From an uncultured Anaerolineales bacterium (GTDB lineage Bacteria > Planctomycetota > Phycisphaerae > FEN-1346), in NCBI GenBank assembly GCA_964397995.1, contig CAYNLG010000002.1, positions 34,444 through 98,443 of the forward strand: 64,000 bases of DNA, given 5' to 3'. The notes beneath the pieces are model-generated. The model ran no database searches and was not told where the DNA came from. It saw only the letters and a list, made by a program, of their open reading frames with translations. Both the position numbers and the translations under genes were made by a program. Below, one piece after another: positions 18,552-51,092 of this stretch. Every line of letters starts with the position of its first letter. The first letter of the stretch is position 1.

Positions 18552-19007
18552 TTACCGACGTTTCTGTCGAAAAAACGCCGTCAACACCTCCCCGCATGCT
18601 TCGGCCATCACCCCCCCCGTCACCTCCACACGATGGTTCAGGCGCGGCTCTTCCAGCAGCCGGAACACCGACGCCACTGCCCCCGCCTTCGGGTCCGTCG
18701 CCCCGTACACCAGCCGGTCCACCCGCGCAAGCACCATCGCCCCGGCGCACATCGCGCACGGTTCCAGCGTCACGTAGAGCGTGCACCCGTGCAGCCGCCA
18801 CGACCCCACCGCCTCGGCCGCCTGGGTGATGGCCAGCATCTCGGCGTGGGCCGTCGGGTCGCGCAGCATCTCGCGCTGGTTGTGGGCCCGCGCGATCCGC
18901 CGCCCTTCGTGCACGATCACGCACCCGACGGGCACCTCGTCCGCGTCCAGGGCCTCGCGGGCCGCCCGCAGCGCCTCGCCCATCCACCGCGCATCGTCGT
19001 CGGCCAT
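18552..19007 (-). CDS. tadA: tRNA-specific adenosine deaminase (A34 to I34 in tRNA-Arg ACG)
   Basis: CDA-fold zinc motifs HAEMLAI and PCAMCAGAM. Length 151 aa. Start at MADDDARW, 52 nt downstream of tRNA-Arg on the same strand. Confidence 0.88.
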   Translation of the reverse strand: MADDDARWMGEALRAAREALDADEVPVGCVIVHEGRRIARAHNQREMLRDPTAHAEMLAITQAAEAVGSWRLHGCTLYVTLEPCAMCAGAMVLARVDRLVYGATDPKAGAVASVFRLLEEPRLNHRVEVTGGVMAEACGEVLTAFFRQKRR

Positions 19008-19059
19008 CGGCTGCCCCCAAAAAGAACCGGCCCGCCGCGAAGCGGGCCGGAAGGTCGGC

Positions 19060-19136
<77 letters not shown>

Positions 19137-20917: not shown

Positions 20918-21133
20918 GGCGATGTCCTCGCGTTCGGGTGCGTCTCGGCCGGGCGGCCGAAAGAAACCTCTCACCCCCTCGTATAGGGCCCTGCACGGCC
21001 CGGGTCAACGGTTTTCCAAGGTTCCCCGCCACGCGGCCGCGCGGCTTGAAGGCCGGCTCCCCGGCTGGTACACTGATGCCGCGCGGCAGCGGCCGCCCCG
21101 GCCGCCGCGCCGAAGGAGACCCGCGTGCAACCG

Positions 21134-27187: not shown

Positions 27188-28453
27188 TTACGTACGGCGA
27201 CGGCGCGCGAGCGCCAGGCCGCCCAGGGCCAGCAGACTGAGCGTGGCCGGCTCAGGCACCGGGTCGCCCTGATAGGCCCCGATGTGCGTCCCGTCCGTGG
27301 CCGCGTTCAGGGCCGGCGAACCGACCAGCAGGGCATAGAACTCCTCGGCCGTAGTCCCGTCGCGGTTCAGCAGCGGGTCGGCCAAGAGGAAGTCGGTGAA
27401 GATGAAATCGTCACCGGTCGTGGTCCAGCCAACGTCGCCCTGGGCACCTGGCCACTCCTCCGGATAGGCGTAGTCCGGGTACCAGCTGTCCTCGGAGTAG
27501 TTGTTGAAGAAGAGGCAGGTGTCGATCTCGACGTCGCCCGCGAGCCCGCCCGTCGAGTTTTCGCCATTGTAAATGGCGTACCACAGGCACTCGGCGAAGA
27601 GGTTGTCGCGGACCTCGATCTTGGTAGCGTCGTAGGTGGCACCGACATTGTCCCAGAAGGCGAGGAGCTGGCTGCTGTAGTCGCCGGCCTGGAGCCACTG
27701 GCCCATCTTGCCATCGAGTGTGTTGTGGGTGACGCTGAGGGTGCGCGTGCCGCTTGGGCTGCCGGTCGCGCCCCCCTGGATGACGATGCCCGCTCGGCCA
27801 CCGCTGATGTAATTGTATGAGATGTCGGTGTGACCGGAAGCGGCGGGGTCGTTGCCGGTCTCCCACCAGATGACGCCTTGGCCGCTCGTGCGCGTGGCCG
27901 AGTGGAAGAAGTTCCCGGTACACGTGAACGATTCGGTGCCCTGGAGGTAGAGCCGCTTGGAGTAGTTGTTGTACACCTCGTTGTTGCGGAAGGTGAAGGT
28001 GGTGTCCGCCTTGGTGTTCCAGATGGCCGAGCGGCAGTCGTGGATCTTGCAGTTCTCGACCGTCCAGCCGGTGTGGGCCGACGCAGCGTTGCCTTCACCG
28101 ATGCCGTAGCCGTACTGATTGCCGGACTGGTGTGTGATCTCCAGGCCGCGCACCGTCACGCCGTCGGCGTTGATGACGATCTTGTTAGCGTACTTGCTGG
28201 TGGTGCTGACGAGGGTCGGCATGGCTTCGCCGGCTGCGCCTTGCAGGACCAGGTTCTGCTGGCCCAGGCTGAGCTGCGGCTCGACATAGGTCCCGGCGTG
28301 GACGGTGACGGTATCGTTGGCCCCGGCCGCGGCGAGGGCGTCGGCGATCGTGCTGTAGGCATAGCCGCTTCCGACGTGGAGCTCGGCGGCCATCGCTGGC
28401 ACGGCCGAAAGCATCCCGAAAGTCGCGGCAAGCATGAGTGTGAAGCGTCGCAT
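27188..28453 (-). CDS. PEP-CTERM sorting-domain protein with right-handed beta-helix (pectate-lyase-like) domain
   Basis: Signal peptide MRRFTLMLAATFGMLSAVPAMA. NxG/beta-helix repeats. C-terminus VPEPATLSLLALGGLALARRRRT, the canonical PEP-CTERM layout (PEP, TM helix, Arg cluster). Confidence 0.8.
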   Translation of the reverse strand: MRRFTLMLAATFGMLSAVPAMAAELHVGSGYAYSTIADALAAAGANDTVTVHAGTYVEPQLSLGQQNLVLQGAAGEAMPTLVSTTSKYANKIVINADGVTVRGLEITHQSGNQYGYGIGEGNAASAHTGWTVENCKIHDCRSAIWNTKADTTFTFRNNEVYNNYSKRLYLQGTESFTCTGNFFHSATRTSGQGVIWWETGNDPAASGHTDISYNYISGGRAGIVIQGGATGSPSGTRTLSVTHNTLDGKMGQWLQAGDYSSQLLAFWDNVGATYDATKIEVRDNLFAECLWYAIYNGENSTGGLAGDVEIDTCLFFNNYSEDSWYPDYAYPEEWPGAQGDVGWTTTGDDFIFTDFLLADPLLNRDGTTAEEFYALLVGSPALNAATDGTHIGAYQGDPVPEPATLSLLALGGLALARRRRT

Positions 28454-28498
28454 GGGTGTCTCCCTTTTCTCTCCCGGGAGGAGAGGCAGGTTCATGAA

Positions 28499-29461
28499 TT
28501 ACTTCCGGCGGCGGCGCGCGAGCGCCAGGCCGCCCAGGGCCAGCAGGCTGAGGGTCGCCGGCTCAGGGACGTTCGAAATCTCAACGTTGTCGAAGAGGAA
28601 CCCGCCACCCAGGTTGCCGATGTCGGCTCCGCCGGCGTTCCGGAACATGAGCGAATCGACGGCCTGCTCGCGCGGCCCCTCGGCGGGGCCAGCGTAGTAC
28701 GATTCCCACGTCGTGCCGGTGTGCTTGAGGTCGCCGTCGATGAAGACCTGGACGATGTCGTTGCCGAACTGCTCGCCGCCGACGTCCTGGAGGCCGTCGA
28801 CGAACTGGATCAGCATCTCGACACGGTGGTAGTCGTCGTAGGACAGGCTGTCGGCAACCTGCGTGTAGTCGTCGCCGCCAAACTGCCCCCAGGGATCGCT
28901 CACCGAGCCGGTGCCGTAGAACCAGATGTCAATGCCGTCGACCCCGTTGTCCGAGATGCCGAGGTAGCCATTGCGGACGGTCGACTGCTTGGCCGTCGGG
29001 CTGAGGCTGAGACCCAAGCCGGTCTGCGGCGTGCCCGTGGCCGACTTGATGTCGAAGGCCGCGTAGAAGTACGGCGTCGCGGCGGGGCTGCCCGCGAGCG
29101 GGGGGTTGTTCGGGTTCGTATGATCGTCGCCGTAATCGTTGTAGAGGTAACTGCCGGGCTCGCCGGCGACCTCGTCGGTGGTCGGCGTGCACGGCTGGAA
29201 AGCGTACTCGGTATACGTGTAGGCGTCCGAGATGCGCCAGGCCTTGTTGCCGTCGCCCTCGACGATGACGGCCTCGTCGAAATCAACCGGCTTGCCCGCG
29301 TCGGTGGGGTCGTTGCCGAACGAGTCCTCGGTGGTCCAGCCTTCCTGGCCGTTGATCGGGCCGAGGGAGAACCCCTCGAAGTCGGTCTGGTAGGCCTGGG
29401 CCATGCCGGCGAGAAGCAGGGCCAGCGTTGTCGCGGCTGCCATACGTGTGATCGATTTCAT
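28499..29461 (-). CDS. PEP-CTERM sorting-domain protein (D/G/T-rich secreted cargo)
   Basis: Signal peptide MKSITRMAAATTLALLLAGMAQA. C-terminus VPEPATLSLLALGGLALARRRRK. Confidence 0.8.
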   Translation of the reverse strand: MKSITRMAAATTLALLLAGMAQAYQTDFEGFSLGPINGQEGWTTEDSFGNDPTDAGKPVDFDEAVIVEGDGNKAWRISDAYTYTEYAFQPCTPTTDEVAGEPGSYLYNDYGDDHTNPNNPPLAGSPAATPYFYAAFDIKSATGTPQTGLGLSLSPTAKQSTVRNGYLGISDNGVDGIDIWFYGTGSVSDPWGQFGGDDYTQVADSLSYDDYHRVEMLIQFVDGLQDVGGEQFGNDIVQVFIDGDLKHTGTTWESYYAGPAEGPREQAVDSLMFRNAGGADIGNLGGGFLFDNVEISNVPEPATLSLLALGGLALARRRRK

Positions 29462-29530
29462 GGTCAGTCTCCGTGGTAGCTACCGCCCGGGGCGCGGGCG
29501 TGCCGCGCCCCGCGGGCGGGTCGGGTTCGC

Positions 29531-30424
29531 TTAGCGGCGCTTGCGGCGCACGAGCGCCAGGCCGCCCAGGGCCAGCAGGGACAGCGTCGCCGGCTCGGGC
29601 ACGGCCACGTCGTGGCTGAAGAAGTACTCGCCCGGGTCGAGCGTGACGGCCTCATCGAGTTCCCAGACGAGCCGCCAGATGGGGTCTTCCTTGCCGGGGT
29701 CCCAGCCGCTGTAGCGGCGCGCGACGCCCGTATCGCTCCAGGAGAACGTGCCGGCGGTGGTGTCGCTCGTCAGCACGTCGCCCTGGAAACTGCCCGTGTC
29801 GGTGGGCATCAGGTAGCCGGCATCGCCGCCGGCGCCCGCGACCGAGGAGAAGATGTTCATCCGGTAGGTGATCCGCGGGTCGTCCGGATCGAAGTTCCCG
29901 TAGTACCCCGTGCCGTCGAAGTAGCCGATGAGCGTGTCGACGGTCGTGGCTTCGGTCAGCTTGAAGTAGCCGCTATAGATCCAGTCCTCGTTGTTGGACA
30001 TGCCGTAGCCCATGTAGAGGCCGGCAATGGGATTGGCGCTCTGGTTGAGCTCGTTGTTGTAGTAGTCGTCCGGGCCGTAGGGGTCACCGTTCTCGATCAG
30101 GTTGTTGTCGAAGACGGTGGCGCCCTCGTTCTTCATGGTCAGGGCGATGCCGCTGTTCTCGGCGAACCAGTCGTCGCGAACCCACTGCTGGGTGGCATAC
30201 CCCGCGTTCGGGTCGTCGGTGACGAAGCGGAAGACACCGCCGGAGCCGTTGTCGCCGTTGACGGTCTGGCCGTTCGGGAACTGGCTCCCGCTGATCCAGT
30301 AGTAGAGGCCGAACGTCGTGGTGCTGTACTCGATGTGGCCGTTGAAGTCCGGGTGCGTCTGGGCCATGGCGGCCGGAGCGGCCAGCAGCATGGCGGCGAG
30401 GGTCATAAGGGTCAGGCGCTTCAT
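29531..30424 (-). CDS. PEP-CTERM sorting-domain protein
   Basis: Signal peptide MKRLTLMTLAAMLLAAPAAMA. C-terminus VPEPATLSLLALGGLALVRRKRR. Confidence 0.8.
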   Translation of the reverse strand: MKRLTLMTLAAMLLAAPAAMAQTHPDFNGHIEYSTTTFGLYYWISGSQFPNGQTVNGDNGSGGVFRFVTDDPNAGYATQQWVRDDWFAENSGIALTMKNEGATVFDNNLIENGDPYGPDDYYNNELNQSANPIAGLYMGYGMSNNEDWIYSGYFKLTEATTVDTLIGYFDGTGYYGNFDPDDPRITYRMNIFSSVAGAGGDAGYLMPTDTGSFQGDVLTSDTTAGTFSWSDTGVARRYSGWDPGKEDPIWRLVWELDEAVTLDPGEYFFSHDVAVPEPATLSLLALGGLALVRRKRR

Positions 30425-30556
30425 GGTAGCACTCCTTGGTTTCGTGCGGTTTGCTTGCGTTTCAGGGGTGCGGGCGACGTCGTTGCCGCCTCGCGGTCAG
30501 TCCCGCCGGCGGGGCGCGCCCCGTGGCGCACCACGCGCGGCCGGGGTCACGTTCGC

Positions 30557-31405
30557 TCAGCCGCGGCGCCGGCGCACGAGCGCCAGGCCGCCCAGGGCCA
30601 ACAGGGACAGCGTCGCCGGCTCGGGCGCGAAGTTCACCTGCGACGTGACGGTCGTCGTGTCGTAGGTCAGCGTGGCGTCCCAGTTGTCGAGCTCGGCGCA
30701 GATCTCCGCGACGGCCCGGTCCAGCGTGTCCTGCTTCGTGTCGCCGTCCTGGTACCAGTACTCGCCGTCGTCGTAGTAAACGGCGTAGGCCATGCCGAAG
30801 TGGCCAACGATGTCGGAGATCGTGTTGGTCGGATTGGCCGCGTCCCAGTCCTCGACGGTGCCGCTCATAACGAGGGTGCCGTCGGCGGCATAGCCGACGC
30901 GTTTCTCGGGGTCGAAGGTGGTGCTGGAGTCAAACGAGACGGCGCTGCCGTAGAAGCTCTCGTAGATGGCGTAGTCGGTGTCGCCCCAGCCGTCCTCGTA
31001 AACCTCGATGCCGCCGATGTTGGCCAAGCTGAGGGCCTCGCCGGCCGTCGCCTCGACGCGGTACACCCAGTGGACGCGGTGGCCGTGTTCGCCGGTACCG
31101 GTCTCGGCCACGCCCTGCCAGCTGTCAAAGCCGGTCGCGAGGGCCTCGTAGCACGGTCGTTCGCCGCTCTCGCCGTTGGTGGGGCTGAGGACGTTGAACG
31201 TGCCGTTGCCGGTACCATAGGTACTGAGGCCGTTCATGACAGCATACTGTGCATTACTCCACCACTCGTTGAAGCTGGTCCCGCCGGCGTACGCGTTGCC
31301 GGCGTTGCTGCCGAGCAGCGAGACGGCAACGGTCTCCACGCCGTAGGCGTTTCCGGCCGCGACCAGGAGGGCGGCGGCCGCCGTGATGCTGAGAAGGGTC
31401 TTCAT
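30557..31405 (-). CDS. PEP-CTERM sorting-domain protein
   Basis: Signal peptide MKTLLSITAAAALLVAAGNAYG. C-terminus APEPATLSLLALGGLALVRRRRG. Confidence 0.8.
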   Translation of the reverse strand: MKTLLSITAAAALLVAAGNAYGVETVAVSLLGSNAGNAYAGGTSFNEWWSNAQYAVMNGLSTYGTGNGTFNVLSPTNGESGERPCYEALATGFDSWQGVAETGTGEHGHRVHWVYRVEATAGEALSLANIGGIEVYEDGWGDTDYAIYESFYGSAVSFDSSTTFDPEKRVGYAADGTLVMSGTVEDWDAANPTNTISDIVGHFGMAYAVYYDDGEYWYQDGDTKQDTLDRAVAEICAELDNWDATLTYDTTTVTSQVNFAPEPATLSLLALGGLALVRRRRG

Positions 31406-31465
31406 TGGTAGCTCCTTTGCCCACGCGGGGCATGGGGTTCGTTCGGTTGGGTTGGCTCTGTCGGG

Positions 31466-32161
31466 TTACTTGCGGCGACGGCGGGCGAACAGCCCGAGGC
31501 CGCCCAGGGCCGCCAGCGTCAGCGTGGCCGGCTCCGGCGTCATGTTGAAGGCCATGTCGAATTCGTAGTCCGGCGACCAGTCGGCGTAGGTCAGCCAGCC
31601 GGTCGGCTCATCGTCGGGCCGGTCGGCGTACTGCCACTGACCCCACGCCTCGCCCTCGACGGTTCGCCAGGCTCCCCCCCAACTGGAAGCTTCGTTCACG
31701 TTGGCGACGGCGCTGAACCAGTAGACGGTGCCCTCGGTCTGATCGAAGACCGGGTCGATGACGCCGGAGAACTTGCGGACCTCACCGGCGGGCTCCCCGC
31801 CGCCCCAGCTGACCGTCTGCACGAAGTCGGCGCCGAAGGTCGTGATGGTACTGGTCTGGAGCAGGGCGCCGGGGCCGCTGCCGGTGTCGGCGTAGATCGA
31901 AAGGTCGAACGAGGTGATGTCGGCCAAGGTGGCGCCACCACGGCTGGCCATCCACCACTCGGCCCCGTCGATGTCGGCGTTGCTGTTCTGGCACTCAAAG
32001 TCGCCGGCGTTCTTCCAGACGGCGTCGGTGTAGCCGGTGGCGTTCAGCGTCCAGAAGTTGCCGCCCGAGCTCATCGGGTGTTCGGCCTTGTAGGGCCCCG
32101 CCCACGCAACCGCGGCCGTCAGGGCCAGGCAGGCGGCAGTCATCATGTATCGCTTACGCAT
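31466..32161 (-). CDS. PEP-CTERM sorting-domain protein
   Basis: Start at MRKRYMMTAACLALTAAVAWAG (signal peptide). C-terminus TPEPATLTLAALGGLGLFARRRRK. An SD sequence AAAGGAG lies upstream. Confidence 0.75.
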   Translation of the reverse strand: MRKRYMMTAACLALTAAVAWAGPYKAEHPMSSGGNFWTLNATGYTDAVWKNAGDFECQNSNADIDGAEWWMASRGGATLADITSFDLSIYADTGSGPGALLQTSTITTFGADFVQTVSWGGGEPAGEVRKFSGVIDPVFDQTEGTVYWFSAVANVNEASSWGGAWRTVEGEAWGQWQYADRPDDEPTGWLTYADWSPDYEFDMAFNMTPEPATLTLAALGGLGLFARRRRK

Positions 32162-32311
32162 GTGTTCCTTTCTCCTTTTTCCCCTCTTCGGGGGAACGAT
32201 GTCGTCGTGCAGCCCGGCCCGTTCTCGGGCCGGATTCGTCTCCGGGCGGCGCCGCGCCGCCCGTTTCGGCACGGGCGCGGTCGCGTCCGGTCTTGGCTTC
32301 CGCTTCAGCGT

Positions 32312-33007
32312 TTACCGACGGCGACGGCGGGCGCACAGCCCGAGGCCGCCCAGGGCCGCCAGCGTCAGCGTGGCCGGCTCCGGCACCACGTGCACCGTGG
32401 AGCCCAGATACTCGACCGAGTCCGGGGCGCCCTGGGTGATAGCGGTGTCGGTCATCTTGTAGACATTGACGCCGTCGTGAACGGCGACATCGACGCCGAC
32501 GGTGGCGTCACCGAGCGAGACGGCCGTCAGCGTGCCTTCGAGCAGCCAGACCGGCCCCGAGGTCGAGTCCACGTTGCCGTAGTACAGGTACTCGGCCCCG
32601 TAGTTGTCATAGCCGCTCTCCAGCGGCGACGAGACGAAGAAGTTCACCAGGCCCCCGTTCGGGCCCCAGCTGGGCTTGCGCGTCAGCGTGGCCATGGCCG
32701 GCTGGAGCGTCACGTCCGGCACGTCCTGGCCGGGCGGGGGGACGGCGATGAACTTGGACTTGATCTCGACGACGCCGAGGTCCGACAGGAGCAGGTCCAG
32801 CGACGCGGCCTGGATACCCAGGTTCTCCGTGCCGAAGTAGACATTCTCGGTCACGGACGCCCAGACACGGAACGCCGTGCTCTGTCCGGGCACCAGTTCG
32901 GTCTGATCCACCTCGACCGAGAACGTCACGACAGAGGCCCAAGCGGCGGTGGCGCCGGCCAAGGCGATGGCGAATGCCACAACAAGAAGTGCGAGCACTT
33001 TCATTTT
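32312..33007 (-). CDS. PEP-CTERM sorting-domain protein (paralog of 36433..37122)
   Basis: Start at MKVLALLVVAFAIALAGATAAWA. C-terminus VPEPATLTLAALGGLGLCARRRRR. About 60% identical to the gene at 36433..37122 (VTFSVEVDQTELVPGQSTAFRVWA against VTFSVEVDDTELMPGQSTGFRVWA). Confidence 0.75.
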   Translation of the reverse strand, partial: KMKVLALLVVAFAIALAGATAAWASVVTFSVEVDQTELVPGQSTAFRVWASVTENVYFGTENLGIQAASLDLLLSDLGVVEIKSKFIAVPPPGQDVPDVTLQPAMATLTRKPSWGPNGGLVNFFVSSPLESGYDNYGAEYLYYGNVDSTSGPVWLLEGTLTAVSLGDATVGVDVAVHDGVNVYKMTDTAITQGAPDSVEYLGSTVHVVPEPATLTLAALGGLGLCARRRRR

Positions 33008-33592
33008 CGGTCCTTCCTCCTGCTGCATGGTGCGTGGACATGGTCCGCCTGCCTCGCGCCGCAGCACAGCGCGAAACGATGCGGCATCCCAGTGCTGTGT
33101 ATCACGTGTGTCCACGTTGCCTCATTCCTCTCCCGGCCGCGCACCCTCGGGGGCCCCTCGCCGCCCGTCGGCCGCGACCGCTTCGCGGGTCCGTCACCGG
33201 CACGTCCCATCCCACGCCGGGAACTGCCTATCCGCCGCCGGTCCGTTCCTCCTTGTGCCTCGTGCTTCGGTTCCTCGCGTGGCCCCGGCCGGCGTCCGGC
33301 CGGCCGGGCCTCCCTCCATCCCCGGCTCCCCCGCGTGCCGCGCACGGGGCCTTCGTCGAGCCCGGCCGGCAAGGCCGGCGCTCAAGGCTCTCGGCGGCTC
33401 TCTGCGACGGGTTCGCCGTCGCGGTTGCCTGGCGGCAGCCGTCGGCGCTGTCCGCGGGTCGCGGTGGTTCCGCTGGTGGGCAGTGCCCCTTCGGGCATGG
33501 GCGGCCCCGGCTGTGCCGGAACTCCGACCCTGGTGCGCCCACCGACGGCCGCGCCCCGCCGCCCCGGCCTGCGGGCCGAGACGCCCGCGCGC

Positions 33593-33781
33593 CTAGGCGG
33601 CCAGCCGCGTCGGCAACCGCATGGCGGGGGTCCGCCCGGCCCAGAGCCAGTCGGTCCAGGCGTCCCGCTGCAGACGCAGAATCGTGGGTGCCCCGTCCCG
33701 GGCGTCGCGGTGCGTCTTCGGCGGCGCCGGACGGGTCTCCGGGTCCATCAGGAACGACGTCTCGTGTCTCGGAATGACCAT
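33593..33781 (-). CDS. Small hypothetical ORF (62 aa), first of three tandem small ORFs
   Basis: Start at MVIPRHET. Ends in ...LAA like its neighbours. Weakest of the three. Confidence 0.25.
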   Translation of the reverse strand: MVIPRHETSFLMDPETRPAPPKTHRDARDGAPTILRLQRDAWTDWLWAGRTPAMRLPTRLAA

Positions 33782-33819: not shown

Positions 33820-34008
33820 TCAGGCGGCCTCGCGGTACCGCGGCGCCTGGCGGCGGCCGCGCACCCGGTCGGCCAGGTGCGTACTGTGTTGGAATCCCCG
33901 CGGAATGCGGCGCTCGGCCCGGCTCTCGAGTTCGTCGGTGATGGCCAGGCTGAGTTGATCCAGCTCGTCCTCCGACAGGTTCCGAATGCGTCGCAGAAGC
34001 TTGTTCAT
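33820..34008 (-). CDS. Small hypothetical protein (62 aa), paralog of the next ORF
   Basis: MNKLLRRIRNLSEDELDQLSLAITDELESRAERR aligns with MTNEELLSLAVLNSDGVLDAVEAELDRRAG of ORF 34087..34290. Acidic helical, no signal peptide. Confidence 0.4.
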   Translation of the reverse strand: MNKLLRRIRNLSEDELDQLSLAITDELESRAERRIPRGFQHSTHLADRVRGRRQAPRYREAA

Positions 34009-34086
34009 CGTGTCCTCTCCCCCCGTTCGGGTTGCATGGGTCGATCCCAGGTAACGGTCTTCTGCACGGCGGATGCGCCCGTGGCC

Positions 34087-34290
34087 TCAGGCGGCCTGGG
34101 CCAGCCCGACGCGCGCCCGCGGCGCTCGCCGCTCGCACAACCGGCGGTACGTCTGGCTGATGCGGCACAGTTGGGCTTGGCCGGCGCGCCGGTCAAGTTC
34201 GGCTTCCACCGCGTCCAGCACGCCGTCGCTGTTCAGCACGGCCAGTGACAGCAACTCCTCGTTCGTCATGTGGTTCAATGCCATGGTCAT
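34087..34290 (-). CDS. Small hypothetical protein (67 aa), paralog of 33820..34008
   Basis: See the previous entry. The (E/D)EL..LSLA...D.(L/V)E.EL(D/E)RR core is shared. Confidence 0.4.
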   Translation of the reverse strand: MTMALNHMTNEELLSLAVLNSDGVLDAVEAELDRRAGQAQLCRISQTYRRLCERRAPRARVGLAQAA

Positions 34291-34366: not shown

Positions 34367-34771
34367 TTACGCACGTCGAAGCCGCGGAACCACCGGCGGC
34401 GCCTGAACCAGGGGCTCCAGCACCGCGTCCCATTCCAGCGCGTCCAGCGGACCCAGCAGCATCTGCACGCCGCGCACCCGGGTGAATACTTCCAGCCCGT
34501 GGTGCACGGCCTCGGTGTAGACGGCACAGAGCCGCGGGGGCACTTGGCGGAGGGCCTCTTCGAGGGCAGCCATCGCGGCTCCGGGCCGCTCGGTCGCGTC
34601 GAAGACCGCCAGGGTCACACCCGCCACGCTCTGCCGCACCACCTCCGGGTCCGGCGTCGCGAGCAGCCGCAACGAGAACCCGTCGTGCCTGGACGCCCAG
34701 TCGCTCAACGAGACCAGCAGGCCCTCGCCGGCGTAGAACGTCGTGATCTCTCGGTGCAACCGAACGATCAT
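34367..34771 (-). CDS. Hypothetical 134-aa protein, possibly a degenerate CheY-like receiver (pseudo-receiver)
   Basis: Alternating beta/alpha pattern (MIVRLH..., FSLRLLA, LAVFDA, RLCAVYTE, VQMLLGPL) with an acidic residue where the phospho-Asp would sit. The N-terminal DD pair and the conserved Lys are missing. Confidence 0.3.
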   Translation of the reverse strand: MIVRLHREITTFYAGEGLLVSLSDWASRHDGFSLRLLATPDPEVVRQSVAGVTLAVFDATERPGAAMAALEEALRQVPPRLCAVYTEAVHHGLEVFTRVRGVQMLLGPLDALEWDAVLEPLVQAPPVVPRLRRA

Positions 34772-35086
34772 GCGGTCGCCTCCTCTGTCGGCCACGGCTG
34801 CACCGACCGCCGGCACAGCGTGACGCCCTACCTAAGGCAAGTGCGATGCCAGCGGGAACGCGCATCGGAAAAAGGGCCCTACGCCATTGGGAAACAAGGG
34901 CTTACCGAAAAGCGATGGCCGCACGGTCGTCCCGACGGCCGCGACACAGCGCTGCAAGGCGCAGCGGAGAAGTGTCGCAGAATGCGGCGCGCGCCGCGGC
35001 ACGCACCGGGGCTACTCATGCCTGCCCGCAACACCGCGGGCGTGCGCAAATGACGGGGGGGGCACACAAGTGAGGGGATGTCGACC

Positions 35087-36037
35087 TCAGGCGACGCGGA
35101 GGCTATCCAGCTTCCGAGCCAGAGTGCTGCGGTGGATACCGAGGAGCCGGGCGGCCTCGGTCTGGTTGTCCTCGGCCAGCTGCATGGCGCGGCGAATGGC
35201 GATGCGCTCGGCGTCTTCCAGGGTCAATGCACCGTCCGGCACGTCCGTGGCTGCGGCCTGCGGACGCCTCTGGCCGAGCGACGCCGCCAAGACCTCCGCC
35301 GGCAGACCTGTCGCGTACAGGCGCTCGACCCAGGCCTTGAGCTCCCGCACGTTGCCCGGCCAGGGGTAGGCGGCCAGGCGATCGCGGACCTCGCGGCGCA
35401 CGGTGCGCGACTCGTACCCGGTGCGGAGGGCGACCTCCGGCAGGAAGTGGTCCAGCAGCGGGTCAATATCCTCGCGGCGGTCGCGCAGCGGCGGCACGTC
35501 GATGCGCACAACATCCAACCGGTAGTAGAGGTCCTCGCGGAATCGCCCCTCGTCGACCAGCTCGCCCAGACTCCGGTTCGTCGCGGCCAGGAAGCGCGTG
35601 TCGACCGACACCGGCCGCGTCTCGCCCACGGGGAGGACCTCCCCGTCCTGGAGCACGCGGAGGAGCTTGGCCTGCTGGCCGAGGGGAATCTCGCCGACCT
35701 CGTCCAGCAGGAGCGTCCCGCCGTCGGCACTGCGCACGAGCCCCTGGAGGCTCCGCTCCGCCCCCGTGAAGGCCCCGCGGACGTGGCCGAAGAACTGGCT
35801 CTCGAAGAGCGCCTCGGAGATGCCCGCGCAGTTGACCGGGATAAGCGGCCGGACCGCCCGCGGGCCGCGGGCGTGGAGGCGGCGGGCCACCAGTTCCTTG
35901 CCAGTCCCGCTCTCCCCCTCGATCAGGACCGCGCAGTCGCTCCGCGCGACAGTGTCGACCAGGTCGATGAGGCGGCAGATGGCATCGCTCGTGCCGACGA
36001 TCTCGGGAATCGGAATCGTGGGTTGCCGTAGAGGCAT
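35087..36037 (-). CDS. Sigma-54 enhancer-binding protein lacking any N-terminal regulatory domain (AAA+ sigma-54 interaction domain plus HTH only)
   Basis: Starts directly at the AAA+ core (MPLRQPTIPIPEIVGTSDAICRL...LIEGESGTGKELVARRLH). A GAFTGA motif (ESQFFGHVRGAFTGA). C-terminal Fis-type HTH (EAARLLGIHRSTLARKL). Confidence 0.8.
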   Translation of the reverse strand: MPLRQPTIPIPEIVGTSDAICRLIDLVDTVARSDCAVLIEGESGTGKELVARRLHARGPRAVRPLIPVNCAGISEALFESQFFGHVRGAFTGAERSLQGLVRSADGGTLLLDEVGEIPLGQQAKLLRVLQDGEVLPVGETRPVSVDTRFLAATNRSLGELVDEGRFREDLYYRLDVVRIDVPPLRDRREDIDPLLDHFLPEVALRTGYESRTVRREVRDRLAAYPWPGNVRELKAWVERLYATGLPAEVLAASLGQRRPQAAATDVPDGALTLEDAERIAIRRAMQLAEDNQTEAARLLGIHRSTLARKLDSLRVA

Positions 36038-36254
36038 GTGGCGGGTTGTCCTTTTCACCAAAGCAAAAACGGGCCGGCGGTTCACCACGAACCGCTGCGA
36101 CCCGTCTAACCCCGCCAGTTTGTCTTGTCCCGGCCAAGGCCGTACGGCGCCCCGGACCGTCCTCCTCCGGACACAGTATAGCACAAAAAGAGGGAAAGTC
36201 AAATAGCCATTGCGCCGCGTTTCTGACCAGCGGCTTCAATGGCAAGGAGACGTT

Positions 36255-36300
36255 GACAAAAATGCGCGGCCTCATCCGGGGGTGACCGGATGAAGCCGCC
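36255..36300 (-). terminator. Intrinsic terminator after the PEP-CTERM gene at 36433..37122
   Basis: A 14-bp imperfect inverted repeat GGCGGCTTCATCCGG-tcaccc-CCGGATGAGGCCGC on the minus strand, followed by GCGCATTTTTG. Confidence 0.45.
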
Positions 36301-36432: not shown

Positions 36433-37122
36433 CTAACGGCGACGCAGCAGGCCCACCAAGCCCAGGCCGAGCAGCGCGAGGCTGGCCGGCTCGGGGACGA
36501 TGTGGACCTGGGCGCCCAGATATTCGACGCCCGTGGGCGGGCCCTGCGTGATCGCCGTGTCCGTCATCTTGTAGACGTTCACGCCGTCATGCACGGCCAC
36601 AGCCAGGTCGACGAAGGCCTCGACGGGCGACACGGCCGTCAGGATGCCTTCGACCAGCCAGATCGGCCCGGCGCTCGGCTCCAGCGACTCCACGTTGCCG
36701 TAGTAAAGGTACGGAGCGCCGAAGTTGTCGTAGCTGCTCTCCAGCGGCGAGGAGACGAAGAAGTTCGCCAGCCCGCCGTTCGGGCCCCACCCCGGCTTGC
36801 GCGTGAGCGTGGCCATATCCGGCTGGAGCGCCACGTCCGGGATCTCCTGGCCCGGAGGCGGCACGGGGATGAACTTCGACTGGATCTCGACGACGCCGGC
36901 CGCCGACAACAGCAGGTCCAGCGACGCCGCCTGGAGGCCCAAGTCATAGGCATCGAAGTACTGGTTGTCGCTGACGGCGGCCCAGACACGGAAACCCGTG
37001 CTCTGGCCAGGCATCAGCTCGGTGTCGTCCACCTCGACGCTGAACGTCACGAGCGACGCGTCGGCGGTCGCCACCAGCCCCGCCAGAACCACACCCAACG
37101 CTACCATCGTCATCCGCATCAT
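36433..37122 (-). CDS. PEP-CTERM sorting-domain protein (paralog of 32312..33007)
   Basis: Start MMRMTMVALGVVLAGLVATADA (signal peptide). C-terminus VPEPASLALLGLGLVGLLRRR. Confidence 0.75.
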   Translation of the reverse strand: MMRMTMVALGVVLAGLVATADASLVTFSVEVDDTELMPGQSTGFRVWAAVSDNQYFDAYDLGLQAASLDLLLSAAGVVEIQSKFIPVPPPGQEIPDVALQPDMATLTRKPGWGPNGGLANFFVSSPLESSYDNFGAPYLYYGNVESLEPSAGPIWLVEGILTAVSPVEAFVDLAVAVHDGVNVYKMTDTAITQGPPTGVEYLGAQVHIVPEPASLALLGLGLVGLLRRR

Positions 37123-37670
37123 GGTCTTCCCCTTCTTCTGCTGCGTCTTCCCGGATTCGGTGTTCCCGTTGTGCCCGATTGCATCCTTTACCCCGCGGCG
37201 TACACCACCGCGAGGGGGCGCTTCCGTTCTGTCTGTCCGTTCCGCCTCGGCTCCTTGCCGATGTGTCGTGGTCAAGGCATGAAAAAAGGCGGTCTTCGGC
37301 CGGGTGCTCCCTCCGAAGATCGCCCTGTTTAGCGATTCTGATTGTAGCGCCGACCGCGCCCTTGGCCGACCGGCGTGGGGCCCTTGGCTATCCCCGCTGG
37401 GCCCGACTGCGCTCCCCAAGTTGTCCTTCAACTGCAAACGGGCCGGTCGTTCGGTCCCTCCGAACGCCTCCGACCCGCGTATCCCGCCGGGGGACGCCTT
37501 CCACCGGGCGTTCTCCCGCTCAGAACGCACCAGCGCCAATCCCGCGACGTGGAACTATAGCCCAGAATTCGCGGAAGTCAAACGCGGCGGGGTATTTTCT
37601 CGACTTTTTTCAGTCGGCGTCTCACTGGGAACTGCCAAGCCACCCGGATATGACGCAAAACAAGAAAGGC

Positions 37671-39077
37671 CTACCCATTGGCGTCTGTGGAGGGAAAAGT
37701 CACGGAGAACGTCGTCCCCTGCCCGACTTCACTTTCGACCCCGATCGTACCGCCATGCATGGCCACCACGCGTTTGATGATCGCCATACCCAGCCCGGTC
37801 CCGTGCTGGACCGTCCGCTTTGCTTCCTTCCCGCGAAAGAACTCCTCGAAGACGCGCGGCAGTTCGTCCGCGGGGATGCCGATGCCCGTGTCGGCAACGG
37901 CCAGTTGCACGCGGCTCCCGGCACTCTCCAGGCCAACCGACACGCGGCCCCCCTCCGGCGTGTACCGCACCGCGTTTGAGACGAGGTTGTTCACCAAATC
38001 CGTCAGGCTCTCCCGTGAGCCGTTGACCACCGCCGACTCCGCCCGGACGTCCAGCGTGATGCCCTTCTCCTGGGCCTGAGCCCGGAAGAGGTCGGCGGCC
38101 GCCCGCACAACCTCCGCCAGTTCCAGGGGTTCCAACCGTTCCACGGCGGCTGCGCGGCGAAGGCGGCTGTAGCGGAGCAGATCGTCGATCAGGTCCAGCA
38201 TACTCTCCGACCGGCCAACCGCCCGGACCAGGAGTCCGCGCCCCTCCGTGTCCTCCGGCATCTTCAGCAGGGCCGTCTTCAGGAGGCTCTGGACGGCCCC
38301 GACGGGGGCGCGGAGTTCGTGGCTGGTCTTCCGCATGAACTGGCTCTTGACCTGTTCCAGCGACCTCAGGTCGTCGTAGGCGGCCTCCAGGTCGTGTTCT
38401 CTCGCCCGGAGGCGGCTGGCGATGCTTCCCGCCACAAAGACGGTCACGTAGACCGCGAAGGTCATCGCGAAGGTGACCTGACTGACGAAGATCCAGTGCT
38501 GGGCCACGTGTGCCCCCACTAAGGGGACACAGACCTCGGCCGCTTCGCCTCCCTCGCAGACGCTGAGCGTGGTATGTATCGCGGGGTAGAAGTACTCCCC
38601 CCAGCCAATCAGGTTGATGAGAACGGCTGCCAGCGTAGCATACCCGAAGGCGATCTTCGGGGCGAAGAACTCGCTGGCGACAATCATCGGGAAGACGAAC
38701 AGGATGATGAAGTGGTTCTCGACGCCGCCGATGAAGTGGACGAGGGCCGCCACGGCCAGCAGGTCGCACGTAATCTGCGCGTGGGCCAGACTCAGGATCC
38801 ACCGGCGGCGGATGCGGCGGCGCCGGTACAGCCACCGCGCCCAGACCGAGAAAACCGTGTTGTAGGCCAGCAGGACCCCGATGGCGGCGATCGCCGGTCG
38901 CAAGGCAAACCGGACGTCGAACAGCGTGTGGCCGATGCCCAGGAAGGCCATGGCCATCAGGCCCGCCCCCCAGCGGACGTGCGTGAACCAGCCCAGGCGC
39001 TCAAAGAGCTCCCGCTCCGAGAGCGTCAGATGCGCTGGCGGCGATGCGTCCAACGACTGGGGCGCCGTGTCAGACAT
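37671..39077 (-). CDS. Multi-TM sensor histidine kinase (HisKA + HATPase_c), candidate PrsK-like partner of the PEP-CTERM regulon
   Basis: An N-terminal ~6-TM sensor region. An H-box (TSHELRAPVGAVQS) and N/G1/G2 boxes (NLVSNAVRYTPEGG, DTGIGIPADE, GTGLGMAI). Confidence 0.8.
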   Translation of the reverse strand: MSDTAPQSLDASPPAHLTLSERELFERLGWFTHVRWGAGLMAMAFLGIGHTLFDVRFALRPAIAAIGVLLAYNTVFSVWARWLYRRRRIRRRWILSLAHAQITCDLLAVAALVHFIGGVENHFIILFVFPMIVASEFFAPKIAFGYATLAAVLINLIGWGEYFYPAIHTTLSVCEGGEAAEVCVPLVGAHVAQHWIFVSQVTFAMTFAVYVTVFVAGSIASRLRAREHDLEAAYDDLRSLEQVKSQFMRKTSHELRAPVGAVQSLLKTALLKMPEDTEGRGLLVRAVGRSESMLDLIDDLLRYSRLRRAAAVERLEPLELAEVVRAAADLFRAQAQEKGITLDVRAESAVVNGSRESLTDLVNNLVSNAVRYTPEGGRVSVGLESAGSRVQLAVADTGIGIPADELPRVFEEFFRGKEAKRTVQHGTGLGMAIIKRVVAMHGGTIGVESEVGQGTTFSVTFPSTDANG

Positions 39078-40059: not shown

Positions 40060-41433
40060 ATGCCCGACCGCAACGACGATGCCGCCGTCCTCGATGACAC
40101 CACGCTGGCCCTGCTCCGCACCCTCCTCAAGACCGGCCGCGACGACGAAATCGCCGCCCTTCTCGGGCGCATGCACGCCGGCGACCTTGCCGACCTGCTG
40201 ACCGATTTCGACGAAGGCGAGACGGTCCGCCTTTTCGGCCTCCTTGATCCGGAAGCGGCCGCGGACGTTCTGGCGGAGGTCGACGCCGAAACCCGCGAGG
40301 ACCTGGTCGACGCCCTGCCCCAGGCCGAGTTCCACGACCTGCTGGGCGAGCTCGAACCGGATGACGCGGCCGACATCATCGGTGAACTTGAGCCGGACGA
40401 GGCCCTGGCGGCCTTGGCTGCCCTGGAGGACCGCCACGAAGTCGCGACGCTGCTGGAGTACGCGCCGGAGTCGGCAGGCGGCCTGATGACGACCGAAATG
40501 GTCGCCCTGCCCCGGGACCTGACGGTTGCGGAGGCCCTGGAACGGACCCGCGGGGCCTCGGAGACGACCCATCGCGACGTCCTTTACGTGACCAACGACA
40601 GCGGGCGGCCGGTGGGCCTGCTGCCCCTGGCAAAACTCGTATTCTCCCCTCCCGAAGCGCGGATCGTAACGCTGATGGAGCCCGACGTCCGGACCGTCCC
40701 CACCGACATGGATCAGGAAGAGGTGGCCGAGATCGTCCGCCGGTACGATTTGATCTCGGTGCCGGTTATCCGCCCGGACACGGGGCGCCTGGCGGGCATC
40801 ATCACCGTGGACGACATCATGGACGCCGTCGCGGACGAGGCCGCCGAAGACCTGTACCGGCTTGCCGGGAGCGGGGCCAGCGACCCGTTCCACCAGTCGG
40901 TCTGGAAACGGGCTCTGCTCCGACTGCCGTGGCTGATCATCACCCTCGGGCCGGGATTCCTTGTGGGCCAGATCATGCGGTGGCTCGGTTATGACCCCGG
41001 CGGCACGACGGCCCTGCTCCTTTTCGTGCCGGTGATGATCGAGATGGCCGGCAGCGTCAGCCTGCAGTCCGCCACGGTCATCGTGCGCGGCCTTGCGACC
41101 GGCGACGTGCGCAGCCACCGGACGCTGGCCATCCTCGGCCGCGAGGTCGCCGTCGCCATCCTCGTCGGCCTGGTCTGCGCCACCATCGCGGGGCTGGTGG
41201 GCTACGCGTTCTTCGGGGGGAGTTGGCCATTCGCGGCCTGCGTGGCGGCCAGCATGGTCTGCGGCGTATTGACGGCGGCCGTGACGGGGACCCTGGTGCC
41301 GCTGGGGTGTCACGCCGTCGGCGTCGACCCGGCGCTCGCCAGCGGGCCGTTCGTCACAAGCCTGAACGACGTCACAGGGACGCTCATCTACCTGGGCCTG
41401 GGCGCGGGCCTGCTCCGCGCGCTCGGGGGATGA
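40060..41433 (+). CDS. mgtE: Magnesium transporter MgtE
   Basis: N-terminal MgtE_N helical domain, tandem CBS domains (PVIRPDTGRLAGIITVDDIMD), and a C-terminal 5-TM pore domain. Confidence 0.88.
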   Translation: MPDRNDDAAVLDDTTLALLRTLLKTGRDDEIAALLGRMHAGDLADLLTDFDEGETVRLFGLLDPEAAADVLAEVDAETREDLVDALPQAEFHDLLGELEPDDAADIIGELEPDEALAALAALEDRHEVATLLEYAPESAGGLMTTEMVALPRDLTVAEALERTRGASETTHRDVLYVTNDSGRPVGLLPLAKLVFSPPEARIVTLMEPDVRTVPTDMDQEEVAEIVRRYDLISVPVIRPDTGRLAGIITVDDIMDAVADEAAEDLYRLAGSGASDPFHQSVWKRALLRLPWLIITLGPGFLVGQIMRWLGYDPGGTTALLLFVPVMIEMAGSVSLQSATVIVRGLATGDVRSHRTLAILGREVAVAILVGLVCATIAGLVGYAFFGGSWPFAACVAASMVCGVLTAAVTGTLVPLGCHAVGVDPALASGPFVTSLNDVTGTLIYLGLGAGLLRALGG

Positions 41434-41522: not shown

Positions 41523-42122
41523 ATGGGCCGAGACAAGGAGCAGGCCGAGGCCGTGCGGGAAGCGGCCGATCGCGATGCCACCCTCGTCGAGCGCCTCAAG
41601 GACGGCGACACCAAGGCCCTGAACGAGCTCTTCGAGCGGCACCGGGACGCCGCCTACGCGGTGGCCTACCGGCTGGTCGGCAATGCCGACGACGCCCTGG
41701 ACGTCGTCCAGGAGGCCTTCATCCACGTCATGCGGGGCATCCGGTCGTTCCGGGGCCAGTCGGCGTTCCGGACGTGGCTGTACCGGATCGTCACGCACGC
41801 GGCCTTGGACTACCGCCGGTACCGGGCGGTGCGCCAGACGCAGAGCCTCGACCACGAGAACGCGCGGGAACCGGCCGACATCGGCCCGGCCCGCGAGAAC
41901 CCGGCCGAGGAGGCCCAGACCCGCGACCTGCGGGAGGCCATCCTTCAGGCCCTGGAGAACGTGTCGGAGAAGAACCGGGCGGCCCTGGTCCTGTATGCCA
42001 TCGAGGGCATGTCGTACAAGGAGGTCGCCGAAGCCTTAGGCATCTCCGTCGGGACCGTCATGAGCCGCATCTTCAACGCCCGTCAGCGACTCAAGGACCT
42101 GATGGCGTCGGAAATCGGGTGA
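41523..42122 (+). CDS. ECF-subfamily RNA polymerase sigma factor
   Basis: Sigma-70 regions 2 and 4 (FRTWLYRIVTHAALDYRR; MSYKEVAEALGISVGTVMSRIFNARQRL). Confidence 0.85.
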   Translation: MGRDKEQAEAVREAADRDATLVERLKDGDTKALNELFERHRDAAYAVAYRLVGNADDALDVVQEAFIHVMRGIRSFRGQSAFRTWLYRIVTHAALDYRRYRAVRQTQSLDHENAREPADIGPARENPAEEAQTRDLREAILQALENVSEKNRAALVLYAIEGMSYKEVAEALGISVGTVMSRIFNARQRLKDLMASEIG

Positions 42123-42127
42123 GTCCC

Positions 42128-42940
42128 ATGGACTGCGAACAGCTCAAGCCACTCTTGGCCGCCTACGCCGACGGCGAACTCGAGGCCCTCGAGGCCGAGA
42201 CCGTGGAGGCCCACATTGCCGAGTGCGGCCGCTGCCGCCAGCTGGTTCACGACCAGCAGCGCATGCAGCACGTACTGGCCTCGTGTGCGGTGCCCGCGGT
42301 GGAGGCGTCTCGGTGGTCGGCCATGGCCGGCGTCCTCAAGGAAGAACTCGAGGGTCAGGGCGAGCCGCGCGAGCTCAAGACCCACATCCCGGCCGAAGCT
42401 TTGGCAATGGAGCCGTTCGGGGCCGACGAGGCCGACACCGACGCGCCACCCGAAACCGAAGAAGAGGACGCCGAACCGGCCGCTGAGCCCGAGGAACGAA
42501 AGCCGATTTTCGAGATCCTGGAGCCGCCCGAAGACCTGCCGGCGGTAAAACCCGCCGAGGCCGCGCCGAAGCCGGCGCCCAAGGCCAAACCGGCCAAGGC
42601 CCGGCCGACGTCACGCCCGGAGCCGCCTCGGTCAGCTCAGCGGCCGGCTCCGTCGATCTCGGTCATCTCGGTCCAGCCGCGCCGCGCGCGGGTTCGATTC
42701 AGTTGGTTCGCGCACGCCGTGGGGGCGGCGGCAGCGTTGGTACTTCTGGCCCTGGGGCTCTGGGTGGCGTTGCGGCCACCGGAGGCCCCGCCCCTGGACT
42801 CTGCCTCGGTGGCCCGCCACGCCGACGTCCAGGTCCACGGCATCGAGATGGACGCGGCCAACTACATGCCGGTGTTCTACGCGGGGGATTCCGACGAGGT
42901 GGCGGCGGTCTGGGTGGTCTCACTCGACTCAGGAGGCTGA
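42128..42940 (+). CDS. Anti-sigma factor (zinc-finger ZAS-like N-terminus, single TM, P/A/K-rich linker)
   Basis: HIAECGRCRQL (H-x3-C-x2-C). A TM segment FAHAVGAAAALVLLALGLWVAL. Sits 5 nt downstream of the ECF sigma gene. Confidence 0.7.
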   Translation: MDCEQLKPLLAAYADGELEALEAETVEAHIAECGRCRQLVHDQQRMQHVLASCAVPAVEASRWSAMAGVLKEELEGQGEPRELKTHIPAEALAMEPFGADEADTDAPPETEEEDAEPAAEPEERKPIFEILEPPEDLPAVKPAEAAPKPAPKAKPAKARPTSRPEPPRSAQRPAPSISVISVQPRRARVRFSWFAHAVGAAAALVLLALGLWVALRPPEAPPLDSASVARHADVQVHGIEMDAANYMPVFYAGDSDEVAAVWVVSLDSGG

Positions 42941-51027: not shown

Positions 51028-51092
51028 TGCCGGCGCTCCTTCCCCATGGAGGCGGCATTATAGGTCGAGCGTGGGGCGCTGCCAAGGGCCCG

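Follow-up and report, generated by a model that had tools for sequence, protein, structure and literature searches.

A receiver-less sigma-54 activator and an adjoining pseudo-receiver operon as a candidate self-contained regulatory circuit in Planctomycetota

RESULTS

A candidate sigma-54 circuit in a planctomycete contig

Analysis of a 64,000-nucleotide (nt) stretch of contig CAYNLG010000002.1 (~70% G+C; hereafter, "the window" means this whole stretch) revealed a gene for a sigma-54 enhancer-binding protein without a regulatory domain (35087 to 36037, [−] strand), followed on the same strand by an operon that has its own predicted sigma-54 promoter and enhancer and encodes a stand-alone pseudo-receiver and three small proteins. 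We propose that these genes constitute a self-contained sigma-54 circuit specific to Planctomycetota, and we put the probability of this proposal, with all five of its steps, at about one in two. In the first step, a sigma-70 promoter would supply an activator that, without a regulatory domain, is able to assemble and hydrolyze ATP unaided. In the second, the helix-turn-helix (HTH) domain of the activator would bind two tandem GTCGCA-N3-TGCGAC palindromes that lie in the spacer directly after the activator gene, and the bound activator would turn on a −24/−12 promoter ~105 to 140 bp away. As the third step, this promoter would drive an operon for the pseudo-receiver and two to four small proteins, i.e., two of type A and one of type B in the window, with a two-pass membrane protein added in relatives. 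In the fourth, for which PspF/PspA-PspBC and HrpS/HrpV-HrpG serve as models, the activator would in turn be regulated in trans by one or more of the operon products; here the pseudo-receiver would serve as a detached regulatory domain through its conserved alpha4-beta5-alpha5 face, and the state of the loop would be set by proteolysis of the proteins with Ala-Ala tails and, in relatives, by the membrane-anchored member. As the fifth step, six PEP-CTERM genes would probably be expressed on the same transcript in the lineage of the window. The first three steps rest on sequence evidence; the fourth (feedback and proteolytic control) and the fifth (PEP-CTERM expression) are what we infer.

The activator consists of AAA+ and HTH domains and forms its own transcription unit

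The longest open reading frame (ORF) of the activator gene (35087 to 36202, [−] strand) contains three Pfam domains and no other: Sigma54_activat (PF00158; residues 68 to 234, E-value of 1.3e-62), AAA_lid_14, and a Fis-type HTH (HTH_8, PF02954; residues 327 to 366, E-value of 6.8e-11). The translation contains GESGTGKE (Walker A), the GAFTGA loop, and DEVGE, and the combination of an AAA+ domain carrying Walker A/B and GAFTGA with a Fis-type HTH places the protein among NtrC-family enhancer-binding proteins. An earlier note on this DNA had described an activator of AAA+ and HTH domains alone, with an ESGTGKE Walker A motif, a GAFTGA loop, and a Fis-type HTH, and with no receiver, GAF, or PAS domain. 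Translation and Pfam bear out the motifs, and the domain content is confirmed by the Pfam search, by the G+C content at third codon positions (GC3), and by upstream stop codons. Specifically, translation from the ATG at 36037 gives a protein of 316 amino acids (aa) whose AAA+ domain begins 12 residues in; the 55 codons above this ATG (36038 to 36202) have a GC3 of 0.69, which is of the non-coding type, in comparison with 0.90 for the activator gene; and in-frame stops (at 36236 to 36238, with others farther upstream) cap any N-terminal extension at 66 aa. The DNA above the ATG holds a sigma-70-type promoter of the activator gene (36175 to 36202, [−] strand; TTGACT-16-TATACT with a TG extended −10, 10 of 12 positions matching), and two such sites were found in the activator region versus 0.4 expected. 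It is preceded by an intrinsic terminator of the upstream PEP-CTERM gene (36266 to 36299, [−] strand; a 14-bp stem with 10 GC pairs, then a T-run). The promoter and the preceding terminator make the activator gene an independent transcription unit; together with the in-frame stop, they leave no room just upstream for a receiver, GAF, or PAS domain to be encoded. An upstream start that adds a receiver, the objection foreseen in the earlier note, is thus ruled out, since any extension is at most 66 aa long and lies in promoter DNA.

In NCBIfam, the activator aligns only with the AAA+/HTH parts of the models for NorR, NtrC, PrsR, PspF, and others, with all scores far under the cut-offs. Tests for orthology with PspF failed (TIGR02974, 232 versus 443.55 bits; NF008622, 198.8 versus 529), as did the test for PrsR (TIGR02915, 269 bits versus a cut-off of 502.6); the TIGR02915 alignment covers the AAA+ and HTH parts and begins at model position 112, beyond most of the receiver part of the model. 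Receiver-less sigma-54 activators are intrinsically active and need control in trans, as in PspF/PspA and HrpS/HrpV. Having no regulatory domain, the activator described here should likewise assemble and hydrolyze ATP alone.

Gene order is conserved across diverged planctomycete loci

The gene contexts examined were those of four members of the pseudo-receiver family and of thirteen genome loci found with a four-sequence alignment, plus one further locus (L067). The counts below refer to 16 non-redundant loci that include the window; L067 is a 17th, looked at separately. All examined loci came from metagenome-assembled genomes (MAGs) or metagenomes of Planctomycetota (Planctomycetia, Thermoguttaceae, and Planctomycetaceae). 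The pseudo-receiver gene is present in 16/16 loci, and in 13 of these an activator orthologue is the next gene upstream of the operon. The 13 orthologues share 58 to 66% identity and none has a regulatory domain; their maximal ORFs span 315 to 338 aa, save those of L003 (396 aa, with an over-extended start) and L005 (frameshifted). The 16 loci, which are diverged at the DNA level, have all kept the gene order, the ribosome-binding sites, the –AA termini, the promoter, and the enhancer. Every component of the module except the activator is annotated in public data as a "hypothetical protein" with no Pfam family, and we found no published description of the module in the literature.

Two observations concern the activator genes of individual relatives. 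L006 carries a second receiver-less activator paralogue (470 to 1432; 320 aa, 37% identity) ~0.8 kb upstream of the orthologue. In a long-read MAG (L005/L013, 4564 to 5515), the coding sequence of the activator orthologue runs across three frames, and the –AA end is missing from the first small gene; these frame breaks are probably assembly frameshifts rather than true pseudogenes.

A sigma-54 promoter and a two-site enhancer precede the pseudo-receiver operon

The predicted −24/−12 promoter of the operon (TGGCATCGCACTTGCC; 34836 to 34851, [−] strand) lies 65 nt upstream of the pseudo-receiver ATG and has equivalents in 16/16 loci. A site scoring at least 18 of 21 precedes the gene in every locus, whereas the background density of such sites is 0.087 per kb per strand, and the distance to the start codon is ~65 to 100 nt in 15 of the 16; in L006, the site, in which GT replaces GC at −12, is weaker and ~220 to 260 nt away from the gene. 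Across the whole window, the sigma-54 consensus is not above chance. Enhancer (upstream activating sequence) site 1 (GTCGCAgaaTGCGGC; 34974 to 34988, no strand assigned) differs at one position from GTCGCA-N3-TGCGAC, begins 137 nt before the −24 element, and is the sole site with no more than one mismatch to the palindrome in 64 kb; the enhancer hexamer occurs 8 times versus 1.15 expected. A probable site 2 (GCTGCGccttGCAGCG; 34950 to 34965, no strand assigned) lies 24 bp downstream of site 1, where relatives carry the half-palindromic GCGCttTGCGAC. The palindrome is found in every locus, starting 137 to 139 nt before the −24 element, and the two-site enhancer recurs at fixed distances (−137/−128 and −104 from the −24 element) in all loci, including three that have no adjacent activator. 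This two-site layout is the classical arrangement of NtrC-family enhancers. A separate sigma-54-dependent operon with its own enhancer directly downstream is the probable target of the activator, and the near-constant adjacency of activator and operon marks the activator as the obvious protein to bind the enhancer.

A metagenome scan for the enhancer together with the promoter returned 48 matches, 7 of which have the full two-site enhancer. The pseudo-receiver gene comes next in 7/7 of these, so the operon appears to be a dedicated target, and no second target class was found in the scan. The pattern was rejected as a marker of further regulon members: the remaining 41 of the 48 matches are unrelated palindromes such as TGAGGTCGCAATTTGCGACCTCA. 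This extended palindrome and its variants recur in many unrelated contigs of 38 to 70% G+C (metagenome matches L019 to L066), and the core GGTCGCA-N3-TGCGACC alone is therefore not specific to the module. Between the enhancer and the −24 element (~−70 to −30), the loci of one clade (L005, L008 to L011, and L015 to L018) share a conserved block, CTAACGnTTGAnnGGCTTGAGTTTG, which was not found in the window and may be a DNA-bending (IHF-like) site.

The operon encodes a stand-alone pseudo-receiver

The gene behind this promoter (34367 to 34771, [−] strand; 134 aa) has a coding-type base composition and a ribosome-binding site (AGAGGAGG). Its product has no match in Pfam (E ≤ 0.1) or NCBIfam, its family profile has no sequence match in PDB, and Response_reg is not among the families listed (E ≤ 1) for its 77 aligned members. 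A word-seeded homologue search recovered the query alone, and species-representative genomes gave no match to the single protein; an exhaustive HMMER search was needed and produced 184 cluster representatives. Among the 150 of these that were listed, nearly all are stand-alone proteins of 120 to 190 aa, and all have at most 263 aa save two giant proteins with short partial matches.

AlphaFold returned an all-helical model from the single sequence (predicted local distance difference test [pLDDT] score of 44.7) and became confident only with the 77-member family alignment, which gave a strict (beta-alpha)5 CheY-like fold (pLDDT of 93.5). The best Foldseek matches were CpaE pseudo-receivers and PorX, with CheY-like and PmrA/DivK receivers also present and a probability of 1.00 to many. 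The conserved residues are D58-A-T, Y85-T-E87, R98, G107-P108, and W114. The Asp at the end of beta3 (D58) occurs in 75/77 members, and at the end of beta4 a Thr-Glu pair is near-invariant (T86 in 67/77, Ser in 7). By the same column counts, the Mg-binding acidic pair after beta1 (positions 13 and 14) is replaced by Y/H/F and then P/A, and the Lys after beta5 is replaced by an invariant Gly-Pro, position 107 being Gly in 77/77. As the acidic pair and the Lys are missing, the protein is a pseudo-receiver, and the "degenerate receiver-like ORF" that the earlier note had listed here proved to encode a CheY-like fold that keeps the Asp and the Thr but has lost the acidic pair and the Lys. Conservation is strongest at the ends of beta3, beta4, and beta5 and on the alpha4-beta5-alpha5 face (H90xGLExFxRxRG...LLGPM...EW). 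The pseudo-receiver represents a new family without annotation that is restricted to Planctomycetota. In L003, a second pseudo-receiver paralogue (5968 to 6411) lies downstream of the first.

Small proteins with Ala-Ala tails follow the pseudo-receiver

Downstream of the pseudo-receiver gene lie three small genes, all on the (−) strand: sA1 (34087 to 34290; 67 aa, type A, ending in –QAA), sA2 (33820 to 34008; 62 aa, type A, ending in –EAA, with the N-terminal helix MNxLLRRIRNLSxxELxxLxxAIxxELxxR), and sB (33593 to 33781; 62 aa, type B, WAGRxPAMR...RLAA-COOH). The two type A genes, which are paralogues of one family, have a coding-type composition, are each preceded by a GGGGGAGA-like ribosome-binding site, and appear among public gene calls; sB is likewise a public gene call, has a GGGGGAGA ribosome-binding site, and carries a motif that recurs in 12 other loci. 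The earlier note had listed tandem small acidic paralogous ORFs at 33820 to 34290. These are real, conserved, and paralogous, but they are not acidic overall (isoelectric points of 7.9 and 11.0), the N-terminal half being acidic and the C-terminal half basic; nor are there two such ORFs only, the third conserved gene at 33593 to 33781 having been overlooked.

Both types recur downstream in relatives, as type A proteins of ~62 to 85 aa with the helix MNxILKRLxxLsxxDLxxLxxAIxxELxRR, including a recurring second type A gene, and as type B proteins of ~63 aa ending in ...FWAGRxxAMRRSARWAA. Most lineages have an extra operon protein of 135 to 220 aa with a signal or transmembrane segment, a periplasmic SPDGLY...SYLNSLDP region, a second transmembrane helix, and a cytoplasmic tail ending in RRAA (L005, 7168 to 7674; L008, 6991 to 7542; L009, 7160 to 7564; L010, 6904 to 7710; L016, 7158 to 7754; L017, 7190 to 7849; L018, 7087 to 7686; L067, 7263 to 7775). 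No homologue of this membrane protein was found in the window, including in a targeted look at the 565-nt spacer that follows sB. Neither the small proteins nor the pseudo-receiver matched a significant Pfam family, PspA included. A role of type A as a mimic of sigma-54 region I, suggested by a shared LSxxEL-like helix, was rejected after a profile comparison with the N-terminus of E. coli RpoN gave a probability of 0.4%.

A free C-terminal Ala-Ala is common to all three small proteins of the window, to 28/32 of the motif-defined sA/sB proteins, and to all 11 database homologues. Downstream of the pseudo-receiver, 42/159 ORFs on the plus strand end in AA versus 2/149 on the minus strand; among the genes of the window, the figure is 1/47. 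In the ssrA tag, recognition by ClpX depends chiefly on the terminal Ala-Ala-COO−, a feature that other cellular substrates share (PMC7652416). The Ala-Ala-COOH ends of the small proteins match this principal determinant, which suggests that they are short-lived substrates of the ClpXP type.

PEP-CTERM genes and other neighbors

Seven PEP-CTERM genes flank the cluster, in agreement with the earlier placement of the activator within a PEP-CTERM island. Six form an array downstream of the operon (27188 to 33028, [−] strand; 32312 to 33028, 31466 to 32161, 30557 to 31405, 29531 to 30424, 28499 to 29461, and 27188 to 28495). The seventh (36433 to 37113, [−] strand) lies between a kinase gene and the activator gene and has its own sigma-70 promoter (TTGACT-16-TATAGT at 37581 to 37554) ~440 nt from the gene start, implying a long untranslated leader; Rfam gave no match in this leader (37114 to 37581) and only three tRNAs in the whole window. 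Sigma-54 control of the PEP-CTERM genes through sites of their own was considered and rejected, since no −24/−12 site scoring at least 17.5 of 21 and no enhancer palindrome was found upstream of any of the seven. Between the operon and the end of the array (33593 to 27188), neither a sigma-70 promoter nor a terminator was found, and the same holds for L002 and L003. The six genes may therefore be read through from the sigma-54 promoter, and on this sequence evidence their co-transcription with the operon is possible. PEP-CTERM genes follow the operon in 4/16 loci (the window, L002, L003, and L005). Of the PEP-CTERM regulon link drawn in the earlier note, what stands is at most this possible co-transcription; the genes have no sigma-54 promoter or enhancer of their own, and the linkage extends to only 4 of the 16 loci.

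The spacer that separates sB from the PEP-CTERM array (33029 to 33592, [−] strand; 565 nt) is ORF-free and very GC-rich (73.5% G+C in its 1-kb bin, with an AT skew of −0.30). Searches of it for promoters, terminators, and Rfam families gave no match, and its DNA is not conserved in L002 or L003.

A membrane histidine kinase (37671 to 39077, [−] strand; PilS-like with six transmembrane segments, HisKA, and HATPase_c by Pfam) is a neighbor in the window and L002 only. With 2/16 loci, it was rejected as a core component and is probably not part of the core module. Elsewhere in the window (21125 to 22552, [+] strand), a canonical NtrC-type response regulator of 475 aa combines a receiver with sigma-54 AAA+, lid, and HTH_8 domains; an isochorismatase-family gene follows it, and there is no kinase among its immediate neighbors. 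The kinase, which lies ~15 kb away and appears to be an orphan, could have this regulator as its true partner.

Several other features of the window were recorded. A pair of genes for an extracytoplasmic function (ECF) sigma factor and a zf-HC2 anti-sigma factor (41523 to 42940, [+] strand) lies near the cluster, directly after an MgtE transporter gene (40060 to 41433). Nucleotide-sugar and polysaccharide genes at 49097 to 53156 and 19841 to 20974 (both [−] strand) encode two epimerase/dehydratases, a Polysacc_synt_2 protein, and a mannose-1-phosphate guanylyltransferase-like protein, a gene content that would suit PEP-CTERM genes in an exopolysaccharide context; the ORFs of the window that were scanned did not include an exosortase. 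In the interval from 18552 to 19136 ([−] strand), a tRNA-Arg(ACG) gene (19060 to 19136) directly precedes an ORF of the same strand that has an HAE...PCxxC deaminase signature and by eye appears TadA-like. TadA edits exactly tRNA-Arg(ACG).

DISCUSSION

The anatomy of the module is unusually clear and conserved, and from it we infer its central mechanistic feature, feedback on the activator. Since the activator has no conserved partners other than the products of the target operon, a feedback loop, whether negative or positive, is the simplest interpretation. Among these products, the leading candidate for a direct partner is the pseudo-receiver, because its fold controls AAA+ assembly in cis in NtrC1/DctD and because its output face is conserved. 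Several findings weigh against the proposed circuit. An adjacent activator is absent from L015 to L017 (3/16 loci) and from L067, and the PEP-CTERM linkage is missing from 12/16 loci. In the window, the sigma-54 promoter scores 18.5 of 21 rather than 20 to 21, and the second enhancer site is degenerate and weaker than the first; the promoter and terminator scanners are simple consensus tools. The nearest structural neighbors of the pseudo-receiver are CpaE/PorX rather than NtrC-type receivers, with TM-scores of only 0.5 to 0.7, and no protein of the size of an AAA+ fusion occurs among the 150 listed of the 184 family representatives. A more elaborate version of the circuit is offered tentatively: a Planctomycetota-specific, proteolysis-gated sigma-54 switch built from a detached pseudo-receiver and degron-tailed mini-proteins, with a membrane-borne envelope reporter in most lineages. 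All of these controllers would be encoded in the one dedicated target operon, and in the lineage of the window the switch would have captured an array of PEP-CTERM surface proteins as its output.

Among the alternatives, a role of the pseudo-receiver in proteolysis comes closest, although we consider it unlikely. It would be a CpdR/RssB-like adaptor or anti-adaptor for an AAA+ protease, with the AA-tailed proteins as clients or Ira-like antagonists, and it would not regulate the activator, which would merely switch the set on upon some cue. Single-domain receivers that act as ClpXP adaptors are known (CpdR and RssB), the co-encoded small proteins nearly all end in the ClpX determinant –AA-COOH, and the conserved pocket (D58/T86/E87/R98) could bind a partner instead of phosphate. 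However, none of the examined loci contains a linked gene for a protease, ClpX, or an adaptor, and the conserved receiver-less activator next door, which needs some control, would be left unexplained. An adaptor role is compatible with the same layout and with the favored circuit. Somewhat less probable still is that the activator is the planctomycete counterpart of PrsR and mainly activates PEP-CTERM genes directly, the small ORFs being incidental. The seven flanking PEP-CTERM genes and the TIGR02915 alignment across the AAA+ and HTH part speak for this reading, as does the control of proteobacterial PEP-CTERM genes by sigma-54/PrsR together with the absence of PrsK/R/T from Planctomycetes (PMC1569441). 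Against it stand the TIGR02915 score (269 versus 502.6), the missing receiver, and the lack of −24/−12 sites (at least 17.5 of 21) or enhancer palindromes upstream of the PEP-CTERM genes of the window, one of which has a sigma-70 promoter; moreover, PEP-CTERM genes are missing in 12/16 loci and the pseudo-receiver operon is present in all.

A split two-component system, in which the kinase at 37671 to 39077 phosphorylates the 134-aa protein and the latter then activates the AAA+ protein in trans, as if NtrC had been cut in two, is improbable. The kinase does lie two genes upstream in the window and L002, and the Asp at the end of beta3 (75/77) and the Thr at the end of beta4 (67/77) are retained; but the acidic pair has become Y/H/F and P/A, the Lys is Gly in 77/77, and a pseudo-receiver without these phosphorylation residues makes such a system unlikely. 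In addition, Response_reg gives no match even at E ≤ 1, the kinase is missing from 14/16 loci, and the canonical receiver-bearing activator at 21125 to 22552 could be its partner. Finally, we give almost no credence to the view that the activator is an ordinary orphan and the ORFs after it are spurious, as expected of GC-rich DNA. At ~70% GC, chance often produces long ORFs, and the window-wide count of sigma-54 consensus sites does not exceed chance, but the 184 representatives with their confident fold speak against this view, and the gene order, ribosome-binding sites, –AA ends, promoter, and enhancer conserved in 16 diverged loci refute it.

Turning from these alternatives to the proposed circuit, its logic appears closest, by analogy, to pspF-pspABC, and its small antagonistic modulators to HrpS/HrpV/HrpG. 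Like PspF, the activator is of the AAA+/HTH-only type, constitutive, and adjoins a sigma-54 operon with an upstream enhancer. The operon linked to PspF encodes its own trans-acting regulator plus small (membrane) proteins, a parallel that we propose for the present operon, and the two-pass membrane protein of relatives parallels PspB/C in position. Unlike in the psp locus, the genes are tandem and not divergent, the cytoplasmic partner has a receiver fold, and the small products are –AA-tailed; furthermore, the activator falls under the TIGR02974 cut-off, and no product matches PspA or another Pfam family. Of the PspA/HrpV-like arrangement that the earlier note had envisaged, the pspF-like layout of activator and target operon therefore holds, and a relative of PspA does not.

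HrpR/HrpS of Pseudomonas syringae are receiver-less and are controlled by the small anti-activator HrpV, itself countered by HrpG, with a contribution from Lon proteolysis. The present module differs in having a single activator rather than a hetero-hexamer pair and in encoding its candidate modulators in the direct target operon of the activator; no sequence relationship was detected, and the taxon is another, with no type III secretion context. With the receivers of NtrC1/DctD, the pseudo-receiver shares the CheY fold and the alpha4-beta5-alpha5 face, which governs assembly of the AAA+ ring there and is the most conserved face here. Unlike them, it is a separate polypeptide, encoded downstream under predicted sigma-54 control, with no linker or coiled coil; as it has neither the Lys nor the residues that bind metal, its phosphorylation is improbable. 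FlbD-FliX of Caulobacter is a further case in which a small trans-acting protein, and not phosphorylation, sets a sigma-54 activator; unlike the present activator, FlbD keeps a degenerate N-terminal receiver in cis, and FliX is unrelated and its context flagellar.

PrsK/PrsR/PrsT resembles the locus in combining a sigma-54 activator and a membrane histidine kinase among PEP-CTERM genes with promoters that have an activator site and a −24/−12 element. Unlike the present activator, PrsR has a receiver and its box lies before individual PEP-CTERM genes; here, the only enhancer and promoter precede the pseudo-receiver operon. PrsK/PrsR were found in Proteobacteria only, and regulators of non-proteobacterial PEP-CTERM genes remained to be found (Haft et al. 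2006, PMC1569441). The likeness to CpdR/RssB and Ira (a small receiver-fold protein, ClpX-type C-termini, and small modulators) is functional speculation; CpdR and RssB are phosphorylatable, and no protease linkage or homology was found for the pseudo-receiver.

To our knowledge, few modes of control are understood for sigma-54 activators without a regulatory domain (PspA, HrpV/HrpG, FleN, and NifL), and gene regulation in Planctomycetes is almost unexplored. Among trans-controlled receiver-less sigma-54 activators, the module looks like a previously undescribed self-regulating switch. It is compact and heterologously testable, and it joins an enhancer and a promoter, both precisely conserved, to four or five protein families that lack annotation. 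For the PEP-CTERM field, it offers a candidate control route in one planctomycete lineage, through an indirect link. If the Ala-Ala tails are degrons, the module would be a natural transcription loop timed by proteolysis, and the proteolysis-gated switch, if true, would add to Psp and Hrp a third, independent way of controlling receiver-less activators. If the pseudo-receiver acts in trans, it would be the first receiver fold to do so on a receiver-less activator, and the regulatory domain of the NtrC type would prove to be separable and able to be placed under feedback control.

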